Source: an uncultured Planctomycetales bacterium (GTDB lineage: Bacteria > Omnitrophota > Gorgyraeia > Zapsychrales > JANLHA01). From it: DNA of 64,000 nucleotides. The DNA is taken from assembly GCA_964474085.1 (NCBI GenBank), contig CAYYRJ010000007.1:8001-72000 (forward strand), written 5' to 3'. Positions 11,974 to 50,303 of the stretch are shown here, in pieces. Both the position numbers and the translations under genes were made by a program. The stretch's first letter is position 1. Each line of letters opens with the position of its first letter. The notes beneath the pieces were generated by a model. The model did no database searches. It saw only the letters and a program-made list of their open reading frames with translations, and was not told where the DNA came from.

Positions 11974-12001
11974 ATTAAAATTACAATGTCACGTAATAAG
12001 C

Positions 12002-12070
12002 AGGGGCACGACGCATCGTGCCCCTACAACTGCTTCATTCTGTAGGAAACGGTTTCAAACCGTTCCCTAC
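12002..12070 (-). terminator. Two tandem GC-rich hairpins directly downstream of the glnN stop (putative terminator or mRNA 3' stabiliser)
   Basis: The hairpins are GGGGCACGA-cgca-TCGTGCCCC (12003-12024) and GTAGGAAACGGTTT-c-AAACCGTTCCCTAC (12042-12070). The single mismatch is a G:U on the minus RNA. There is no strong U-tract. Confidence 0.35.
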
Positions 12071-12079
12071 AAAAGTTTA

Positions 12080-14224
12080 TTATGCATTCATTAACAACAT
12101 TTCCGCATAACTTGGTAACGGCCAAATATTAGCTGGCACCAAACCTTCCAACTCATCGATCACTTCGCGCAACTTGAGCATACCCGAAAGCGTCTTGGCC
12201 GAATCATGCTTTTCTAAAGCAGCTTCCAGGGCATCCGCCGCTTTTAAAGCTCCATCGATAAGACCAGAAACTTTCTTGACCAGCTTCTTTTGCGTGACGG
12301 ATTTTGCCGACGAGAGAAGCTCTTGATATTCCAACCCGGCCGGAATAAGCTGCGTGCGCGCAATCGTTGCCGCACAACTGCCTTCCAAAGCAATCACCGT
12401 ATCATACGCGTGCTTGTTGATTTCATAACGGGAAGCAACTTCGACTGTCGTTAAAACGCCATGCTTGGCCAAAACATCGATGTTCTTCTTGAGCTTCAAT
12501 GTTTCTAGGGCTTCGGGTGTTGTTTTAAGATTCGGTAAACCACGTTTCTTGGCTTCTGCGTGCCACTCTGCAGTGTAATTGTCGCCGTTAAAAAGAACGC
12601 GTTTATGTTTTTTAATAATCCCCTGCAAAACAGCCTGCAAAGATTTATTAAAATCCAAACCGGCCTTTTTATCCGCTTCCAACTGATCACAGATTTCAGA
12701 AAGCGCCTGAGCGACAATCGTATTTAAAACCATATTGGCCGCCGACGGATTCTGGTTAGAACCGACTGCGCGAAATTCAAACTTAGCTCCCGTAAAAGCA
12801 AACGGCGAGGTCCGATTGCGGTCAGTTGTATCTTTCGCCAAACTCGGCAAAGAGTCTACCCCAACATTAATATCGCCGCCCTGCTTGGACGTTTTAGCTC
12901 CGCCTTTTTCGATTTGCTCGACGATATCAAAAAGCTGTTCGCCTAAAAAGATCGAAACAATCGCCGGTGGCGCTTCGTTGGCCCCCAAGCGATGATCATT
13001 TCCGGCGGTGGCGACTGTCACGCGCAAAAGATCCGCGTACGTATCAACCGCTTTGATAATCGCACAAAGAGTCGTTAAAAACTTTGCATTTTCGTGCGGG
13101 GTTTTTCCCGGATACAACCAATTCTTTCCGTCAGGCCCGACCACAGACCAGTTATTGTGTTTCCCCGAACCATTGATTCCAGCAAAAGGCTTTTCGTGCA
13201 ACAAGCAAACCAAGCCATGCTTATCCGCCAATTGGCGCATCACTTCCATGCACATCATATTGTGATCGACGGCAATGTTAAGATCTTCGTAAATCGGAGC
13301 AATTTCATATTGTGCGGGAGCCACTTCATTATGGCGGGTTTTAGACGGCATCCCTAATTCCCAGAGCGTGCGGTCCAAATCTTCCATAAACGCCATGATC
13401 CGCGGCTTGATAGCGCCAAAATAATGATCTTCTTGCTGTTGATGCTTCGCTGGCTTGCGACCAAAAAGCGTACGGCCGGTCTGAACCAAGTCAAGGCGCA
13501 TTTCATAATGCGCTTTATCGATCAAAAAATATTCCTGTTCCGGTCCGAGCGTGCAATACGCGCGCTTGCCCTTGGTATCAATGCCAAAAAGATTGGCTAA
13601 GCGGCAAATTTGCTTGGAAAGCGCCGTCATCGAACGCAAAAGCGGCGTCTTTTTGTCCAAAGCTTCGCCGTGATAACCGATATAAAATGTCGGAATGCAT
13701 AACGTTGTAGCTTCCGGACCTTCCTTAATAAAAGCAGGAGAGGTCGGATCCCAACCGGTGTAACCGCGCGCTTCAAAGGTTGCGCGAAGTCCGCCCGACG
13801 GAAAAGACGAAGCATCCGGTTCGCCCTGAATTAATTCCTTGCCTCCAAAATTTAAAATAACCCCACCCTCGCCGTCCCACGTAATAAAAGAATCATGCTT
13901 TTCGGCGGTTGTGCCCGTCAACGGCTGAAACCAATGCGTAAAATGTGTCGCGCCCTTGGAAACCGCCCATGTCTTCATGGCCTCGGCAACTTCATCGGCA
14001 ATTTCCGGATCCAGCCGGCCGCCTTCTTTGATCGTCGTGCTTAAGCTCTTATACGCTTTTTCGGAAAGATACTTTCGCATCACCTTAAGCGTAAAAACAT
14101 TTTTTCCAAAATACTCAGGGATTGACTGGCCTTCAACTTTCGTTTCGAGTTCGTTCATCGTGCGTTCTCCTATAAAATTACGAATCGTGGTTTGTGCTTC
14201 CTGGGTTCTGTTGACATTGCTCAT
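12080..14224 (-). CDS. glnN: Glutamine synthetase type III (GlnN, about 700-aa class)
   Basis: The length of about 700 aa and the motifs are characteristic of GSIII (N-terminal EYFGKNVF…KVMRKYL, catalytic region NGSGKHNNWS). An alternative start is the MNELETK ATG at 14156-14158. Confidence 0.85.
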   Translation of the reverse strand: MSNVNRTQEAQTTIRNFIGERTMNELETKVEGQSIPEYFGKNVFTLKVMRKYLSEKAYKSLSTTIKEGGRLDPEIADEVAEAMKTWAVSKGATHFTHWFQPLTGTTAEKHDSFITWDGEGGVILNFGGKELIQGEPDASSFPSGGLRATFEARGYTGWDPTSPAFIKEGPEATTLCIPTFYIGYHGEALDKKTPLLRSMTALSKQICRLANLFGIDTKGKRAYCTLGPEQEYFLIDKAHYEMRLDLVQTGRTLFGRKPAKHQQQEDHYFGAIKPRIMAFMEDLDRTLWELGMPSKTRHNEVAPAQYEIAPIYEDLNIAVDHNMMCMEVMRQLADKHGLVCLLHEKPFAGINGSGKHNNWSVVGPDGKNWLYPGKTPHENAKFLTTLCAIIKAVDTYADLLRVTVATAGNDHRLGANEAPPAIVSIFLGEQLFDIVEQIEKGGAKTSKQGGDINVGVDSLPSLAKDTTDRNRTSPFAFTGAKFEFRAVGSNQNPSAANMVLNTIVAQALSEICDQLEADKKAGLDFNKSLQAVLQGIIKKHKRVLFNGDNYTAEWHAEAKKRGLPNLKTTPEALETLKLKKNIDVLAKHGVLTTVEVASRYEINKHAYDTVIALEGSCAATIARTQLIPAGLEYQELLSSAKSVTQKKLVKKVSGLIDGALKAADALEAALEKHDSAKTLSGMLKLREVIDELEGLVPANIWPLPSYAEMLLMNA

Positions 14225-14263
14225 AAAATTTTCTCCTTTGTCCCGCGCCTGGAATAAGGCGGC

Positions 14264-14292
14264 ATTTTAACAAGCTGCCCGCATAATGTCAA
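14264..14292 (-). promoter_or_regulatory. Sigma-70 consensus promoter for glnN (-35 TTGACA, 17-nt spacer, -10 TAAAAT)
   Basis: On the minus strand: TTGACA at 14287-14292, an exact 17-nt spacer, and TAAAAT at 14264-14269. It is about 40 nt upstream of the glnN ATG, which has an AAAGGAGAAAA Shine-Dalgarno. Confidence 0.5.
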
Positions 14293-14310
14293 TCAAGCTC
14301 TCGACCGCTT

Positions 14311-14353
14311 AAAATGCGACGGGCGGGCGGACTTTAAATCTTATCCACCCGCC
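14311..14353 (-). terminator. Possible weak intrinsic terminator after glnB
   Basis: On the minus RNA, a 10-bp GC-rich stem GGCGGGUGGA / UCCGCCCGCC (one G:U) with a 12-nt loop is followed 5 nt later by AUUUUAA, a short U-tract. Confidence 0.3.
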
Positions 14354-14383
14354 TTTGCCGCCTAAAAACATCGCCAAACAATT

Positions 14384-14725
14384 TTACCCGATTGCGTCCG
14401 GGCCTTCATCGCCAGTACGGATACGGATACAGCGCGGCAATTCAACGACAAAAATCTTTCCGTCGCCGATTTTTCCCGTGCGCGCCCCGCGGATAATCGC
14501 TTTGATCGTTTTGTCAACAAAGTTCTCGTTGACCGCGATTTCAAGCTTAACCTTGCGCAAAAGGTTCCCGGTTTCTTTAACGCCGCGATAGAACTCGTCA
14601 ACACCTTTTTGACGACCGTGTCCCAAAACTTCGCTGACGGTAATCAGATTGACATCTTCTTTATACAATTCTTTTTTGACATCTTCCAACCGATGCGGCT
14701 GGATAATTGCTATGATCAGTTTCAT
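14384..14725 (-). CDS. glnB: Nitrogen regulatory protein P-II (GlnB/GlnK)
   Basis: 112-aa P-II fold with a T-loop region (RYRGVKE…-like, GHGRQKG) and a C-terminal GDGKIFV motif. It lies immediately downstream of amtB, the classic amtB-glnK arrangement. Confidence 0.9.
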
Positions 14726-14771
14726 TTAAGACGCCCTCCTTAAAGATTCACTTAAAAAAGTAAATAACGGT

Positions 14772-16013
14772 TTATTCAAAAATCGTGTACGCGCGTTCAT
14801 GGTGCTGAGAAAGATCCAAGCCCATGACTTCATCTTCGGCAGAAGCCCTGACTCCAACGATAGCGTCCACAATTTTAAAAATAATAAATGTTCCAACGGC
14901 TGACCAAACAACCGTTACCCCAACAGCAGCAAGCTGAATTAAGAATTGCTTAGGGTTTCCATAAAATAACCCGTTAGCGCCCGCTGAATTAACTGTTGTC
15001 GTCGCAAAAACACCCGTTAATAAAGCGCCCCAAATCCCGCCGATCCCATGGACGCCGAAAGCGTCGAGAGAATCGTCATAGCCGAGTTTAGGTTTCAAAT
15101 ATCCGACGGCAAAGAAACACACAACGCTGACCGTCAAACCGATAATAAGCGCACCGGTGGTATCCACAAACCCTGCCGCAGGCGTAACCGCAACCAAGCC
15201 TGCAACCACACCTGTGGCCACACCGAACATCGTCGGCTTGCCGCTAACTAACCATTCTATAATTGCCCAGCTTAAACCCGCTGCAGCAGCAGCCGTATTG
15301 GTTGTAATAAAAGCATTCGCAGCTAAACCATTTGCTGCCAAGGCACTTCCCGCATTAAACCCAAACCAGCCAAACCACAACAGCCCGGCGCCCAAAACAA
15401 CAAAAGGCATATTGTGAATGGCCATCGGCTTATTTTCATAACCTAAACGTTTACCCAACATCAAAGCACACACAAGCGCGGCAACACCGGCGTTGATATG
15501 AACAACCGTTCCGCCGGCAAAATCCAAAGCGCCCCAGGCGCGGACCCAACCGCCGAGCGCCCAAACCATATGACAGATCGGATCATAAACCAACGTTGCC
15601 CACAAAATCATAAATAAGAGAAAAGCCGCAAACTTCATGCGTTCCGCAAAAGCGCCGATAATAAGCGCTGGCGTGATAATCGCAAACATCGCCTGAAAAA
15701 TCATAAACGCCTGATGCGGAATTGTCGCCGCATAATCAGCATTTGCAGCTTGACCCACACCGTTTAACCCAAGCCAACTTAAACCCCCAACAAACGGATT
15801 TCCCGGGCCAAAAGCTAAACTATAACCAAACAAAACCCATTGAATACTGATAACACACATCAACATAAAACATTGCATCAAAATACCTAAAACGTTTTTA
15901 CGACGAACCATACCTCCGTAAAAGAAGGCCAAGCCTGGGGTCATCAAAAGCACAAGCGCACTGCTCGCCAAAACCCAAGCTGTATCTCCCGCGTTAATTG
16001 GAACTGGCTCCAT
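14772..16013 (-). CDS. amtB: Ammonium transporter AmtB/Amt family
   Basis: 11-TM Amt signature (…LLMTPGLAFFYGGMVR…, GAVAERMKF-like, HGIGGIWG). Confidence 0.92.
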   Translation of the reverse strand: MEPVPINAGDTAWVLASSALVLLMTPGLAFFYGGMVRRKNVLGILMQCFMLMCVISIQWVLFGYSLAFGPGNPFVGGLSWLGLNGVGQAANADYAATIPHQAFMIFQAMFAIITPALIIGAFAERMKFAAFLLFMILWATLVYDPICHMVWALGGWVRAWGALDFAGGTVVHINAGVAALVCALMLGKRLGYENKPMAIHNMPFVVLGAGLLWFGWFGFNAGSALAANGLAANAFITTNTAAAAAGLSWAIIEWLVSGKPTMFGVATGVVAGLVAVTPAAGFVDTTGALIIGLTVSVVCFFAVGYLKPKLGYDDSLDAFGVHGIGGIWGALLTGVFATTTVNSAGANGLFYGNPKQFLIQLAAVGVTVVWSAVGTFIIFKIVDAIVGVRASAEDEVMGLDLSQHHERAYTIFE

Positions 16014-16124
16014 GGTACATTCTCCTTTGCTGTGAAACGGTTTACTCTGTGTTTAATCCCTAAATTTGAATTTCCCTGAAGCTATAGGCTGACTCTTAGC
16101 ATTTGATCATTTACGCTTTGGGTC

Positions 16125-16183
16125 AATAAAAAATCCCCTAACCGCCATTTTCATTAATGGTTCGCTAGAGGACATCTTTGCCC
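16125..16183 (-). promoter_or_regulatory. amtB-glnB leader: intrinsic terminator whose apical hairpin, with an upstream hairpin, carries AxxGxx hexaloops (candidate ANTAR dual-hairpin antitermination target)
   Basis: Minus RNA hairpins: P1 is GGGC-AAAGAU-GUCC (16170-16183) and P2 is CCAUU-AAUGAA-AAUGG (16145-16160). Both hexaloops have A at position 1 and G at position 4. The outer stem CCUCUAGC / GGUUAGGGG (16164-16171 and 16135-16143) is followed by AUUUUUUAUU (16125-16134). The P1 3' arm overlaps the terminator 5' arm. A GAF-ANTAR gene lies immediately upstream. Confidence 0.45.
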
Positions 16184-16233
16184 GCACTTCATTTTTTCTG
16201 CCTAAAGACTTCAACGCCTTTAGAGACTTTCAA

Positions 16234-16262
16234 AGTATAGAAGTACACTTTAGTTTTGTCAA
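16234..16262 (-). promoter_or_regulatory. Sigma-70 consensus promoter for amtB-glnB (-35 TTGACA, 17-nt spacer, -10 TATACT)
   Basis: On the minus strand: TTGACA at 16257-16262, a 17-nt spacer, and TATACT at 16234-16239. It lies just downstream of the ANTAR gene stop and about 220 nt upstream of the amtB ATG. Confidence 0.5.
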
Positions 16263-16288
16263 CTATTTTTTAAAAATCGGTTGTTTTT

Positions 16289-17551
16289 TTACTTGCTAAA
16301 CTCGTCCATCAAAATAATCGACTCAGCGATGTCTTTCATCGATTTGCAGGTGTCCATGCTTTTTTTATGGATAAGCCGATGGGCGGCTTCTTCGGTAAGA
16401 TGGTTCATGCGCATCAAAATCCCCTTGGCGCGTTCGACAAGTTTGCGGGTTTCCAAAGCTTCACGGGTTTTGGAAGCTTCTTCGACGAGTTTCGTGTTCT
16501 CAACAGCGACAGCAGCCTGATTAGCCACCATTTGCAGGACGCTGACTTCCTCGCCGGAAAACTGGTGGAATTCCTTGGTATAAACGTTGATGACACCAAT
16601 GGCTTTATCTTTGACAATCATCGGGACAGCGACCATCGAAGAAAGATTTTCTTTGATCGCAAGCTCCCGATAAGCATAACGTTCATCCTGCCGGACATCT
16701 TCGACGACCAGAGGATTTTTGGTTTTGACCACATCACCGACCAAACTATTTTTAACTTTAAGATTGGGCTTTTTAATATATTCTTCACTTAAGCTCTGCG
16801 TGGCCTTGATGCTAAGCTCCTCGCCCTTTTCATCCAAAAGCATGATTGAACAGATCTTCGAATTAAGCATCTCCGCAGTAATAACAACGATAAGATTTAA
16901 AATCTCGTCGAGATAGCGCTGGGAGGTAATCGAATGGCTGACTTTGACCAAACTGTCAAATTGGCTGGCCTTCTGCTTGGTGTCCTCAAAAAGACGCGCA
17001 TGCTCAATGACCCCGCCGACCTGTTTGGCAATCGTATCGATTAAATTCACAGAACTTGTCGAATATTCATGCGGGTTTTTGTGCTGGACATTGATAACGC
17101 CGCTGACTTTTCCCTTATAAATGATCGGAACAGAAAGAAAAGCTTCATAGCGGTCTTCGGGTAAAACATCAAAACCTTTAAAGCGCGGGTCCTGATACGC
17201 ATTTTTTTTGATAGCGACCGGTTTATTGTGTTCGGCGACCCAGCCGGTAATCCCTTCGCCGACGCGCAAATTGATTTTGCCGAGCACTTTTTTGTGCGGC
17301 GTTTTGGAAGCCATCAGGACAAGATTCTTTTTGCCGCGGTCAAAAAGATAAACAAAAATCGAATCGGCTTTCGTCATTTCATTGACGATGCCGACGACTT
17401 CATGCAAAATGCCCGCCAAATCCAAGTCGGAACACGTGATATCTACAATCCGCCGCAAAATCTTGAGCTCTTGCGCACTGGAAATATTAAGCGTAACGCT
17501 TGTCAAAGCTGTTGTATTTTTAACTTTTTTTGTCTGTGCCATGAAAGCCAT
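16289..17551 (-). CDS. GAF-GAF-ANTAR RNA-binding antitermination regulator
   Basis: Two GAF-like domains precede a C-terminal ANTAR domain (ALETRKLVERAKGILMRMNHLTEEAAHRLIHKKSMD…). It sits directly upstream of the promoter and terminator-containing leader of amtB. Confidence 0.75.
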   Translation of the reverse strand: MAFMAQTKKVKNTTALTSVTLNISSAQELKILRRIVDITCSDLDLAGILHEVVGIVNEMTKADSIFVYLFDRGKKNLVLMASKTPHKKVLGKINLRVGEGITGWVAEHNKPVAIKKNAYQDPRFKGFDVLPEDRYEAFLSVPIIYKGKVSGVINVQHKNPHEYSTSSVNLIDTIAKQVGGVIEHARLFEDTKQKASQFDSLVKVSHSITSQRYLDEILNLIVVITAEMLNSKICSIMLLDEKGEELSIKATQSLSEEYIKKPNLKVKNSLVGDVVKTKNPLVVEDVRQDERYAYRELAIKENLSSMVAVPMIVKDKAIGVINVYTKEFHQFSGEEVSVLQMVANQAAVAVENTKLVEEASKTREALETRKLVERAKGILMRMNHLTEEAAHRLIHKKSMDTCKSMKDIAESIILMDEFSK

Positions 17552-17585
17552 TTTAACAGAAAGCGCCTTGTTGCAATGATTATCT

Positions 17586-18776
17586 TCAACTTATAACAAA
17601 CTTATCATTTTCAAGCACGATCGCCATCGCCCCGCCGCCGCCATAACAGATTGCCCCAAGGCCGTATCTTTTATTTTCCGCTTTTAAAGCGTGCGCCAGC
17701 GTAACTAAAATTCGCAACCCGGCTGCGCCTAAAGGATGCCCTAAAGCAATGTCCCCGCCGTAAATATTCATTTTTTGCGTCGCAATATCGAGCTTATCGC
17801 GTGTGTAAATCGCTTGCGCCGAAAATGCCTCACTGACTTCAAAAAGATCAATGTCTTTGCATTTTAAACCGCACGCCCGTAAACATGCCTCTGCGGCAGG
17901 GACCGCCGCCGTAAAGACTTCTTTGGGATTTAAAGCAATCGATGCAAAGCCGACAATACGCGAGAGCGGATGGACTTTTTGGCGTTTCACAAAATCTTTA
18001 CCAGCAACCAAAACAGCAGCTGCCCCGTCGCACGGCAAAGATACATTTCCCGCAGAAAGCGTCCCGTTTTTGCCAAAGGCCGGCGGTAAAATTTTAAAAC
18101 TCTCGAGATTCACGTGCCGACGGATATGTTCATCCGCAAAAAAATTCTTTCCGTCAGACAAAGCGACACCGACGATTTCATTGCTAAAATTTGCACCCGC
18201 AGCTTTGCGATGACTTTCAAAAGCATAGGCATCTTGAGCCGGCCGCGAAATTTTTTCGCGTTTCGCCAAACTTTCGCAAAGCTGTCCCATCAATTGACCG
18301 CTTAAATTGCACCAGAGCCCATCATACATCAAGCTGTCAATCGGCGTACGCTCACTGTATGGCGTTTCCACGTCTTTCGAAAAAAGCAGAGGTGTACGGG
18401 TCGCACTTTCTGCCCCGACAGCGATGATACAGTCTTTGGAACCAAAACAAATCGCTTGCCCTGCAAGAATAAGTGCCTGCAACCCAGAAGCGCAAACCGC
18501 ATTGACCGTATAAGCGGTCGTCTTAAAGTTTAGTCCGCCGCAAAAACTTGCTTGCCGCGCCGGGTTTTGCCCGCTGCCCGCCGAAACAGTATTGCCCAAA
18601 ATTACTTCTGAAATACAATCCGGGTTAAGACGCGTACGCTTTAAGAGGCCCTGAATCACAATGCCACCTAATTGAGGGGCAGAAAAATCTTTTAAACTTT
18701 TAAAGGGACTTGCGACGGGCGTTCTAAGAGCATCAAGAATATAAAGAGGATTTTTATCAAAAGAGCTCTGCGGCAT
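17586..18776 (-). CDS. Acetyl-CoA C-acetyltransferase (thiolase II)
   Basis: Thiolase N- and C-terminal domains are present, with the active-site region NAVCASGLQA and the C-terminal motif GLGAICYGGGGAMAIVLE. Confidence 0.85.
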   Translation of the reverse strand: MPQSSFDKNPLYILDALRTPVASPFKSLKDFSAPQLGGIVIQGLLKRTRLNPDCISEVILGNTVSAGSGQNPARQASFCGGLNFKTTAYTVNAVCASGLQALILAGQAICFGSKDCIIAVGAESATRTPLLFSKDVETPYSERTPIDSLMYDGLWCNLSGQLMGQLCESLAKREKISRPAQDAYAFESHRKAAGANFSNEIVGVALSDGKNFFADEHIRRHVNLESFKILPPAFGKNGTLSAGNVSLPCDGAAAVLVAGKDFVKRQKVHPLSRIVGFASIALNPKEVFTAAVPAAEACLRACGLKCKDIDLFEVSEAFSAQAIYTRDKLDIATQKMNIYGGDIALGHPLGAAGLRILVTLAHALKAENKRYGLGAICYGGGGAMAIVLENDKFVIS

Positions 18777-48893: not shown

Positions 48894-50303
48894 TTAGTAA
48901 GAAACCTGAAAGCGGGTCAAAACAACATCTTCGGTTCTGCGATCGCCGACGGTAGCGCCACGATCAAATCGAGTTTGTTCAAAGCCTAAAGAAATCCGAT
49001 AATTTTTGCTCAAATACCAATTGGCTCCGACGCCCCAGGCATCCGCGCCCGAAACTGAACTGCTAAGGCTGGCAAAGCCGCTGTCAAAAATACTGTTGTC
49101 AATCGACAAATGACCATAGCGGGCCACAACATCAAATGCTCCCCAAGTGTCTTTGGCCAAATCAAAATTATTTCGCGGCGTCACACCTTTAAACGTCGCC
49201 AATTCCCCGGTCAACACATAGTTTCCGGAAATTTGCCATGCCGTATTTTCAAACGTCCCGCGAATAATGCTCGCACCGCTGGTGCGAACAACTTTTTGAT
49301 TTGACTGAATATATTCTCCCAAGAGTCCCAGAGAGCCATTATAAAAAGAAACTTGCGGAGTCAAACGCGCATGAAGTCCGTCGGCGGTAATCCCTGAAGA
49401 ATAACTAAAAATACTCGCCTGACCTGTAGACTTATACGTCGGAATCGTCGATCCTTCATTGTGTCCAAAAGAACCGGCAAGCCCGATGCCTAGACCTTTA
49501 AAAAACTCGGGCCCCTTATTTTTAAACGGCGAAACGAACACGCGACCCAAAACATCTTTGTCATTATTGTTGTCCGTATCCTGGCCGGTTGAGCTGGCCA
49601 AATCCGCAGAACCGTTAAAAATACCGACGTTGTAATTTACGGTTTCCTTAAAAAGATCGCCTGACAACTGAAAACCAACTTCGCGATTCGGCGCTAAATT
49701 GCTTGGCAAACCGACTTCGCTAAAATTATTTGCACTATCCGATTGAAAACGCTCGAGAGCAAAAGGCACTTTGAATTTACCGCCTTTTAACTTAAGCGCC
49801 GGCGAAAACTTGATTTCACTATACGCATCAACAAGCGTTGAAGCACCGCTTCCAAAATCCGGCATGATGTAAAAATCAAAAATCTTGCCGACAGTGCCTT
49901 CAAAAATCAAGCGCGCCCGACGAACGCTAAAGGTATCATTGACGCCAAGATTCTTTTTGTCATAAAAGAAAAAACGGCCGTCCGTCTGAGCATAGCCGCG
50001 AAGTTTTAATTTAAAACTTTCATCCGCGTTTTTAATACTAAAGCCGTCTTTGACATTTGCGGTAACAATCGGCGTTTCTGCTGTCTTTTTTCCTTCTTCT
50101 TCCTTTTTAACTTCCAATTGCCGCTTGAGAACCGCGATTTCCTGCTCTAAGCCTTCAAGCCGCTTCTCGATTGCAGACGTTGATGAAGAATCCGCTGCAG
50201 GAGTCGATTGCACTGACTCTGGCCCATCGGATGCCCAAGCTATTAATGGAGAAGCTCCTCCTAAAATCAACAATGCCATTAAAAAACCTTTAAACTTTTG
50301 CAT
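48894..50303 (-). CDS. Outer-membrane porin, OprO/OprP (phosphate-selective porin O/P)-like, with N-terminal coiled-coil
   Basis: Signal peptide, an N-terminal coiled coil (IEKRLEGLEQEIAVLKRQLEVKKEEE), a beta-strand-rich body and a C-terminal aromatic residue (…TRFQVSY). Confidence 0.5.
   Translation of the reverse strand: MQKFKGFLMALLILGGASPLIAWASDGPESVQSTPAADSSSTSAIEKRLEGLEQEIAVLKRQLEVKKEEEGKKTAETPIVTANVKDGFSIKNADESFKLKLRGYAQTDGRFFFYDKKNLGVNDTFSVRRARLIFEGTVGKIFDFYIMPDFGSGASTLVDAYSEIKFSPALKLKGGKFKVPFALERFQSDSANNFSEVGLPSNLAPNREVGFQLSGDLFKETVNYNVGIFNGSADLASSTGQDTDNNNDKDVLGRVFVSPFKNKGPEFFKGLGIGLAGSFGHNEGSTIPTYKSTGQASIFSYSSGITADGLHARLTPQVSFYNGSLGLLGEYIQSNQKVVRTSGASIIRGTFENTAWQISGNYVLTGELATFKGVTPRNNFDLAKDTWGAFDVVARYGHLSIDNSIFDSGFASLSSSVSGADAWGVGANWYLSKNYRISLGFEQTRFDRGATVGDRRTEDVVLTRFQVSY

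Follow-up and report, generated by a model that had tools for sequence, protein, structure and literature searches.

Introduction

Antitermination of nitrogen genes by ANTAR proteins is established; it has been predicted for the leaders of ammonium transporter and P-II genes and demonstrated for GnfR. In this study we describe the leader of an amtB-glnB operon, together with the adjacent gene for a GAF-GAF-ANTAR protein, in a stretch of 64,000 nucleotides (nt) from an uncultured bacterium deposited as Planctomycetales and assigned to the Omnitrophota by GTDB (NCBI GenBank assembly GCA_964474085.1, contig CAYYRJ010000007.1, positions 8,001 to 72,000). Homologues likewise identify the source as Candidatus Omnitrophota. 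The whole 64-kb stretch is referred to as the window; all coordinates of the locus are those of the window, and all of its features lie on the minus strand. We propose that the leader is probably an ANTAR-type transcription attenuator of the amtB-glnB operon, and that it is run by the adjacent protein as a one-component regulator.

In Geobacter sulfurreducens, the ANTAR antiterminator GnfR of the GnfK/GnfR system acts on premature terminators of amtB, glnK and other nitrogen genes (Ueki & Lovley 2010, PMC2995071). GnfR binds CAGGCAANGGCGCC, which overlaps the terminators in the amtB and glnK leaders (PMC2995071). This site forms a GGC[AANGGC]GCC hairpin over the terminator (loops are given in square brackets throughout), and in this respect it is comparable with the GGGC[AAAGAU]GUCC hairpin of our leader. 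GnfR is a phosphorylation-dependent REC-ANTAR protein that needs the kinase GnfK, whereas the regulator in our window has no receiver domain and, by our prediction, senses a metabolite as a one-component protein; moreover, the two organisms belong to different phyla.

EutV of Enterococcus faecalis (target eut), NasR of Klebsiella oxytoca (nasF) and AmiR of Pseudomonas aeruginosa (amiE) share the ANTAR output with the window regulator and likewise have targets in nitrogen metabolism (PMC3369931, PMC8934654, PMC7496416). The published ANTAR consensus consists of the hairpins P1, SYAC[AAHGRH]GUDB, and P2, RRGY[AAHGDV]GCYY, with P2 overlapping the terminator (PMC3369931). The P2 of nasF is GGAU[AAAGGC]GUCC (PMC3369931 Fig S1/S2) and ends in the same GUCC as the P2 described below, and SELEX with NasR returned C:G as the closing pair, A at loop position 1 (A1) and G at loop position 4 (G4) (PMC7496416). 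As in these three systems, our leader has two hexaloop stem-loops with C:G closing pairs and G4 (A1 in P2), and the 3' arm of P2 overlaps the terminator. The differences are that the known sensors are REC, NIT or pseudo-receiver domains instead of GAF-GAF, that the P1 loop in the window begins with G and not A, that its P1-P2 linker is 17 nt instead of 5-12 nt, and that many members of the family studied here add an ANTAR-like hexaloop at the apex of the terminator.

Computational matches to the ANTAR RNA motif ahead of ammonium transporter and P-II genes, tandem arrays included, have already been reported. The ANTAR regulons that were predicted for Desulfotomaculum, Clostridium thermocellum and others (Table S2 of Ramesh 2012, PMC3369931) resemble the present family in having tandem attenuators in a transcription unit, but they are predictions in Firmicutes to which no regulator type was assigned, and they do not cover Omnitrophota or Elusimicrobia. 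According to the ANTAR literature there is no characterised GAF-ANTAR regulator (PMC7496416), and our literature search found no GAF-ANTAR protein tied to nitrogen control. What is new here is the phylum and the type of regulator, with relaxed P1-P2 spacing and recurrent apex hexaloops as modest peculiarities.

Results

The 5' part of the amtB leader contains the hairpin P1, UCUAAAGGC[GUUGAA]GUCUUUAGG (16224..16201, -9.9 kcal/mol), which has 9 base pairs (bp), a C:G closing pair and a loop with G4 but with G at position 1. An A-rich linker of 17 nt (16200..16184) separates it from P2, the antiterminator mini-hairpin GGGC[AAAGAU]GUCC (16183..16170, -4.8 kcal/mol), which is closed by C:G and has both A1 and G4. 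The GUCC of P2 is also the beginning of an intrinsic terminator (16173..16133, -17.3/-17.8 kcal/mol) that is composed of a 10-bp lower stem, an internal loop and an apical hairpin, P3 (CCAUU[AAUGAA]AAUGG, 16160..16145, -3.6 kcal/mol, closed by U:A). Directly 3' of the terminator stem lies the U-tract UUUUUAUU (16132..16125). All 4 nt of the 3' arm of P2 are the first 4 nt of the 5' arm of the terminator, so P2 and the terminator are mutually exclusive. When the pairs held by P2 are taken away, the truncated terminator retains -9.1 kcal/mol.

Structure prediction of the leader, a check that the first-pass annotation of this DNA had proposed, placed the terminator in the minimum free energy fold: the region 16228..16125 folds as P1 plus the terminator, with a z of -3.7, and none of 200 shuffles folded as well. 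The terminator is also part of the consensus structure of the orthologous amtB leaders. By sequence it has the features of an intrinsic terminator, namely the 10-bp lower stem with a CC/GG base and then the U-tract. A simple terminator scan did not list it because of the internal loop, and it was verified by folding.

Because GGGC[AAAGAU]GUCC agrees with the published consensus and overlaps the terminator, it is, as we read it, a canonical ANTAR P2. P1 and P2 are consecutive hexaloop hairpins, both closed by C:G, and the architecture of the leader is in our reading essentially canonical, with a long P1-P2 linker. The first-pass annotation had arrived at another view. It had correctly located the hexaloop hairpins AAAGAU and AAUGAA, had recognized the second as the apex of a longer stem ending in an intrinsic terminator, and had seen that the 3' arm of the first overlaps the 5' arm of the terminator, an overlap that comprises all four nucleotides. 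However, it overlooked the hairpin CUAAAGGC[GUUGAA]GUCUUUAG at 16224..16201, which is P1, and it gave the name P1 to the hairpin that fits the published P2. Its reading of a non-canonical arrangement, in which the terminator itself contains P2, arose from this omission and mislabelling and is not supported for this leader, which has a canonical P1 17 nt upstream. Nor did the apex AAUGAA hold up as P2, since it closes with U:A and is not kept in the nearest orthologues, in which the apex loop has 7 nt (L006) or 5 nt (L004). P1 is kept in the orthologous amtB leaders L006, L004 and L010, where its stem shows one compensatory pair. The loops are GACGAA, AAAGAA and AGCGAC, so that G4 never changes and position 1 is A or G.

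The comparison covered 26 loci from genomes, 15 from metagenomes and 4 more, each encoding a relative of the regulator and labelled L001-L045. A unit was defined as an RRRC[NNNGNN]GYYY mini-hairpin whose 3' arm is at the same time the foot of an intrinsic terminator followed by a U-tract. This gave 43 non-redundant units in about 30 loci of Omnitrophota, Elusimicrobia and Clostridia, all of them on the coding strand. In every one of the 43, the 3' arm of P2 is the first 4 bp of the terminator. The consensus of the units is GGGC[AAUGAU]GUCC, the median terminator has -17.7 kcal/mol, and the core hairpin alone has about -3.4 kcal/mol. In most Omnitrophota loci, amtB-glnB-glnA comes after the regulator gene, or glnA is its immediate downstream neighbour. 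Genes found after the units are amtB, the type III glutamine synthetase gene glnA, a nirB-type nitrite reductase gene (L007, L011), the NAD synthase gene nadE (L025, L045) and a glutamate-synthase-like gene (L039). Considering these comparisons, the proposal of the first-pass annotation that amtB-glnB is controlled by ANTAR antitermination through the adjacent regulator, with the GAF domains as the sensor, now has strong comparative support at the level of sequence.

The conservation of the core was measured on an alignment of 41 units from which the window was left out. Neither the closing C:G pair nor G4 changes in any of the 41 units, and the other three core pairs vary while remaining paired (GC/AU, GC/AU/GU and GU/AU/GC). 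In the core stem, 98.8% of the cells are paired, compared with 35-62% after a shift of the partner by 1-3 columns, although the former figure is inflated as the units were partly selected for pairing. The observed covariation score was reached by none of 500 shuffles.

A covariance model, R1, was built from this alignment, and the window was searched with filters off. P2 was the best match (21.1 bits, E=0.018) and P1, 36 nt from the P2 match, was the second best (14.3 bits, E=0.56); nothing else in the 64 kb fell below E=2. In an Elusimicrobia locus that carries the same regulator, R1 detected three units between genes, of which one lies 5' of the regulator gene itself. It had no match in 15 loci in which neither amtB nor glnA comes after the ANTAR gene. 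P2 is the sole exact match to the pattern in the window, while one exact GGRCNNNGNNGTCC match per 128 kb (both strands) is about the chance expectation. With one mismatch allowed, the P2 pattern had 11 matches in the window against 10.4 expected by chance. A terminator-linked GAC[AAAGAU]GUU near 49563 lies within an open reading frame of 469 amino acids (aa) and was judged a chance occurrence.

We also searched positions 12000-18000 against Rfam at E<=10 and found no match inside the leader and intergenic region 16014..16288. A weak CPEB3-ribozyme match at 15309-15363 reached 21.4 bits, where the gathering score is 35; it falls within the coding sequence of amtB and was rejected as spurious, as were microRNA matches in coding sequence.

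The units occur singly or in tandem. Tandem arrays of 2-4 units in one amtB leader were observed in L030 (4273-4450), which has four, L008 (5201-5432) and L017 (5320-5413). Units also stand upstream of the GAF-GAF-ANTAR gene at L045 5852-5910 (Elusimicrobia), where a promoter, AAGGC[AAAGAU]GUCUU and a terminator are found, and at L039 2907. This suggests that the regulator may control its own gene in some lineages; no unit was found upstream of the regulator gene of the window. In L013 (5524-6315) and L025 (5139-5876), the genes directly 3' of units encode secreted proteins of about 250 aa with a YVWRGF motif and no Pfam match. These proteins could belong to the nitrogen regulon as a porin or as part of an uptake system.

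The regulator gene (17551..16289) encodes a protein of 420 aa with two Pfam GAF domains and an ANTAR domain at residues 361-413. The ANTAR domain matches PF03861 with E=2e-20 and 72.6 bits, against a cut-off of 27.3, over profile positions 2-54 of 54, and a sequence search linked this part to the solved structures of EutV (6wsh), Rv1626 (1s8n) and NasR (4akk). For GAF1 (residues 30-192), the alignment with the N-terminal GAF domain of PtsP (PRK11061 positions 3-164, E=4.8e-43) extends from end to end, and GAF1 also matches the PtsP GAF structure PDB 3ci6 (E=4e-23). GAF2 aligns with the N-terminal GAF of NifA (NCBIfam TIGR01817 positions 2-199, E=1.7e-30). These are domain-level likenesses that fall well short of the cut-offs set by the PtsP and NifA models for whole proteins, as is expected because each match is confined to one domain. 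The output of the regulator is ANTAR, in contrast to the phosphotransferase module of EI-Ntr (PtsP) and the AAA+/HTH module of NifA. Relatives of about 410-420 aa with at least 50% identity form a GAF-GAF-ANTAR family found in Omnitrophota, Elusimicrobia, Clostridia, Nitrospirota and Acidobacteriota.

The promoter ahead of the leader is of the sigma-70 type (16262..16234) and was found in a promoter scan with an 11/12 match: the -35 element is TTGACA (16262-16257), the spacer is 17 nt, and the -10 element is TATACT (16239-16234), a 5/6 match. The -35 element begins 27 nt past the stop codon of the regulator gene, which was confirmed to end at 16289. The position and spacing given by the first-pass annotation were thus right, but the promoter is near-consensus and not perfect as it had been called. 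With a predicted transcription start at about 16228 and the amtB ATG at 16013, the leader is about 214 nt long. TTGACA/TATAnT promoters also precede the units in L006, L008, L019, L021, L024, L025 and L030. Because near-consensus promoters precede most units, the comparison suggests that the main point of control may be a step after initiation.

The regulator and amtB genes are separated by an intergenic region of 275 nt (between 16289 and 16013). amtB, the first regulated gene, encodes an ammonium transporter (16013..14772; PF00909, E=2e-131), and the second gene of the operon is a glnB/glnK gene for a P-II protein (14725..14384; PF00543 and NCBIfam P-II models), as had been annotated before. 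The upstream neighbour of the regulator gene is a thiolase gene (18776..17586). Between the attenuator and the amtB start, a spacer of 110 nt (16014-16124) shares several blocks with L006, which are GUCAGCCUAWAGCUUCA, AUUUAGGGAU and the region of the ribosome-binding site; this spacer is without an Rfam match. Just 3' of glnB, at about 14319-14352, there is a GC-rich 10-bp hairpin, GGCGGGUGGA...UCCGCCCGCC, with a U-run 7 nt beyond it. It is probably the terminator of the operon, though not a textbook one. Further downstream is the gene for a type III glutamine synthetase, glnA (14224..12080). Another near-consensus promoter, TTGACA-17-TAAAAT, which has a TG extension, lies directly 5' of it (14264-14292). 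There is no ANTAR-type unit ahead of glnA in the window, where the gene has its own promoter and a leader of only about 35 nt, whereas glnA is preceded by an attenuator unit in L013, L019, L020, L021, L024 and L026.

Discussion

From the anatomy of the leader we infer the following course of binding, termination and read-through. The near-consensus promoter would fire constitutively. By default, the nascent leader would fold as P1 plus the terminator, with the terminator (-17.8 kcal/mol) outcompeting P2 (-4.8 kcal/mol), and transcription would stop about 100 nt in. When the regulator is active, its ANTAR domains would bind the hexaloop hairpins P1 and, above all, P2; P1 is possibly a recruitment hairpin, as in the successive-binding model. 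A P2 held in this way would sequester GUCC, that is, the four terminator pairs that abut the U-tract. The leftover stem of -9.1 kcal/mol, separated from the U-tract by four unpaired nt, should not terminate, and this would allow read-through into amtB-glnB.

The signal is perhaps the status of nitrogen in the cell. The GAF domain of NifA from Azotobacter binds 2-oxoglutarate. The GAF domain of EI-Ntr binds glutamine (PMC4848567). Since GAF1 resembles the GAF of the glutamine-sensing EI-Ntr (PtsP) and GAF2 resembles that of NifA, direct sensing of nitrogen status is suggested, and the GAF domains would most likely perceive it through glutamine and/or 2-oxoglutarate. A one-component sensor that reads these metabolites directly seems to us the most likely design, which we propose tentatively; the ligand assignment, drawn from the likeness of the GAF domains, is a guess, and the sign of the response is likewise inferred.

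Several observations weigh against this account of the leader. The P1 loop in the window, GUUGAA, is without the canonical A1. The P1-P2 linker is not short, with 17 nt in the window, 13-45 nt in the orthologues and 2-27 nt across the units. In the eut system, EutV tolerates a linker of about 5-12 nt, and linkers of 3 nt, 14 nt or +20 nt abolish function, a rule that comes from EutV only. The regulators of L001, L002 and L003, which are 91-98% identical to ours, have no amtB after them, and R1 had no match in their flanking DNA. Because these closest relatives are without an adjacent target, the adjacency of regulator and target is not fixed even within the lineage. For the homologues of 52-55% identity in Nitrospirota (L042/L043) and Acidobacteriota (L044), no unit was found beside the regulator gene, and their targets, if any, would therefore be elsewhere in the genome. 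What connects the regulator with the RNA units is thus their co-occurrence.

P1 is the proposed partner of P2, but other arrangements are conceivable. Besides P2, two kinds of hexaloop recur in the units. Hairpins with a G4 hexaloop were present within 50 nt upstream in 20/43 units, compared with 5.5±2.2 in dinucleotide shuffles. At the terminator apex, a G4 hexaloop was found in 18/43 units but in only 31/452 control terminator-like hairpins (7%; Fisher p=4e-9), and one with both A1 and G4 in 10/43 units against 8/452 controls (p=2e-7). It may be, nevertheless, that P2 alone matters and that upstream and apex hexaloops are dispensable, for example as recruitment sites or leftovers of tandem arrays. 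Under strict criteria, a partner hairpin is missing both upstream and at the apex in 13 of the 43 units, which also speaks against the two-hairpin model, and because of these units a dual-hairpin requirement may not apply. Nothing but P2, joined to the terminator, is invariant across the units, in keeping with the work of Walshe et al. (2022, PMC8934654), who redefined the smallest ANTAR target as one hexaloop; the binding site of GnfR is likewise one conserved hairpin sequence (PMC2995071). However, the enrichment of both types of partner is difficult to reconcile with dispensable hairpins, a P1 with G4 is kept in all four orthologous amtB leaders, and NasR and EutV bind lone hairpins more weakly than pairs (NasR: PMC7496416). 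We therefore consider it unlikely, though deserving of attention, that P2 works by itself in this leader.

It is also conceivable that P2 pairs functionally with the apex AAUGAA hairpin, the 5' arm of the terminator serving as a linker of 9 nt; an ANTAR dimer on this pair would keep the lower stem open, and the upstream hairpin would be irrelevant. A spacing of 9 nt falls in the 5-12 nt range of EutV, unlike the 17 nt between P1 and P2. In addition to the enrichment described above, 15/18 of the apex G4 hexaloops are closed by C:G, and the units that start at the transcription start and have no room for a P1 (L008 5201, L025 3601 and L030 4273) all carry an apex hexaloop. For such units the apex idea of the first-pass annotation may hold, because apex hexaloops are enriched and these units carry one. 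In the window, on the other hand, the apex closes with U:A, its loop is not kept in L006 and L004, and it was not among the R1 matches, in which P1 ranked second. Moreover, 25 of the 43 units are without an apex hexaloop, and the presence of one is uncorrelated with the absence of an upstream hairpin. This argues that an apex partner is quite improbable for this leader. The idea that upstream and apex partners replace each other was dropped for the same lack of correlation (Fisher p=1). Where units stand in tandem, the apex loop of a terminator is placed 9-14 nt upstream of the P2 that comes after it, and for this reason the terminator could at the same time act as P1 for the next unit.

Finally, an ordinary constitutive terminator or pause site, or control by a riboswitch, a small RNA or a different protein, with coincidental hexaloops and an ANTAR protein that acts elsewhere, would agree with the chance-level frequency of exact GGRCNNNGNNGTCC matches and with regulators that are not always adjacent to their targets, but it is very improbable, as the element lies 3' of the promoter and 5' of amtB and so cannot serve the regulator gene alone, the core and terminator recur in 43 units before nitrogen-assimilation genes in three phyla, no riboswitch or other Rfam family was found in the leader even at E<=10, and an aptamer would need more than the small conserved part, which matches the ANTAR consensus.

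The ANTAR-type attenuator with P1 and P2 is accordingly the reading that we retain. A wider proposal, possible but rather speculative, is that GAF(PtsP-like)-GAF(NifA-like)-ANTAR proteins are a widespread class of antiterminators sensing glutamine or 2-oxoglutarate directly, and that, in the lineages which carry them, they act as master post-initiation regulators of nitrogen assimilation in place of NtrBC, GlnR or NtcA. Their RNA grammar would be relaxed: a P2 fused to the terminator would be obligatory, hexaloops upstream or at the apex would be optional, and in tandem arrays an apex could serve as the next P1.

The regulator in the window is a candidate for the first GAF-ANTAR protein to be characterised; it has a plausible class of ligand (glutamine or 2-oxoglutarate), and its family offers about 40 natural variants of the RNA target for biochemistry. 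The variable P1-P2 spacing and the apex hexaloops bear on the question of whether ANTAR domains need one or two hairpins and on how strict the spacing is beyond EutV. For Omnitrophota and relatives such as Elusimicrobia, the attenuator model would, if correct, give a concrete, testable picture of how ammonium uptake and glutamine synthesis are controlled, with one or several ANTAR attenuators acting as gates behind constitutive consensus promoters.

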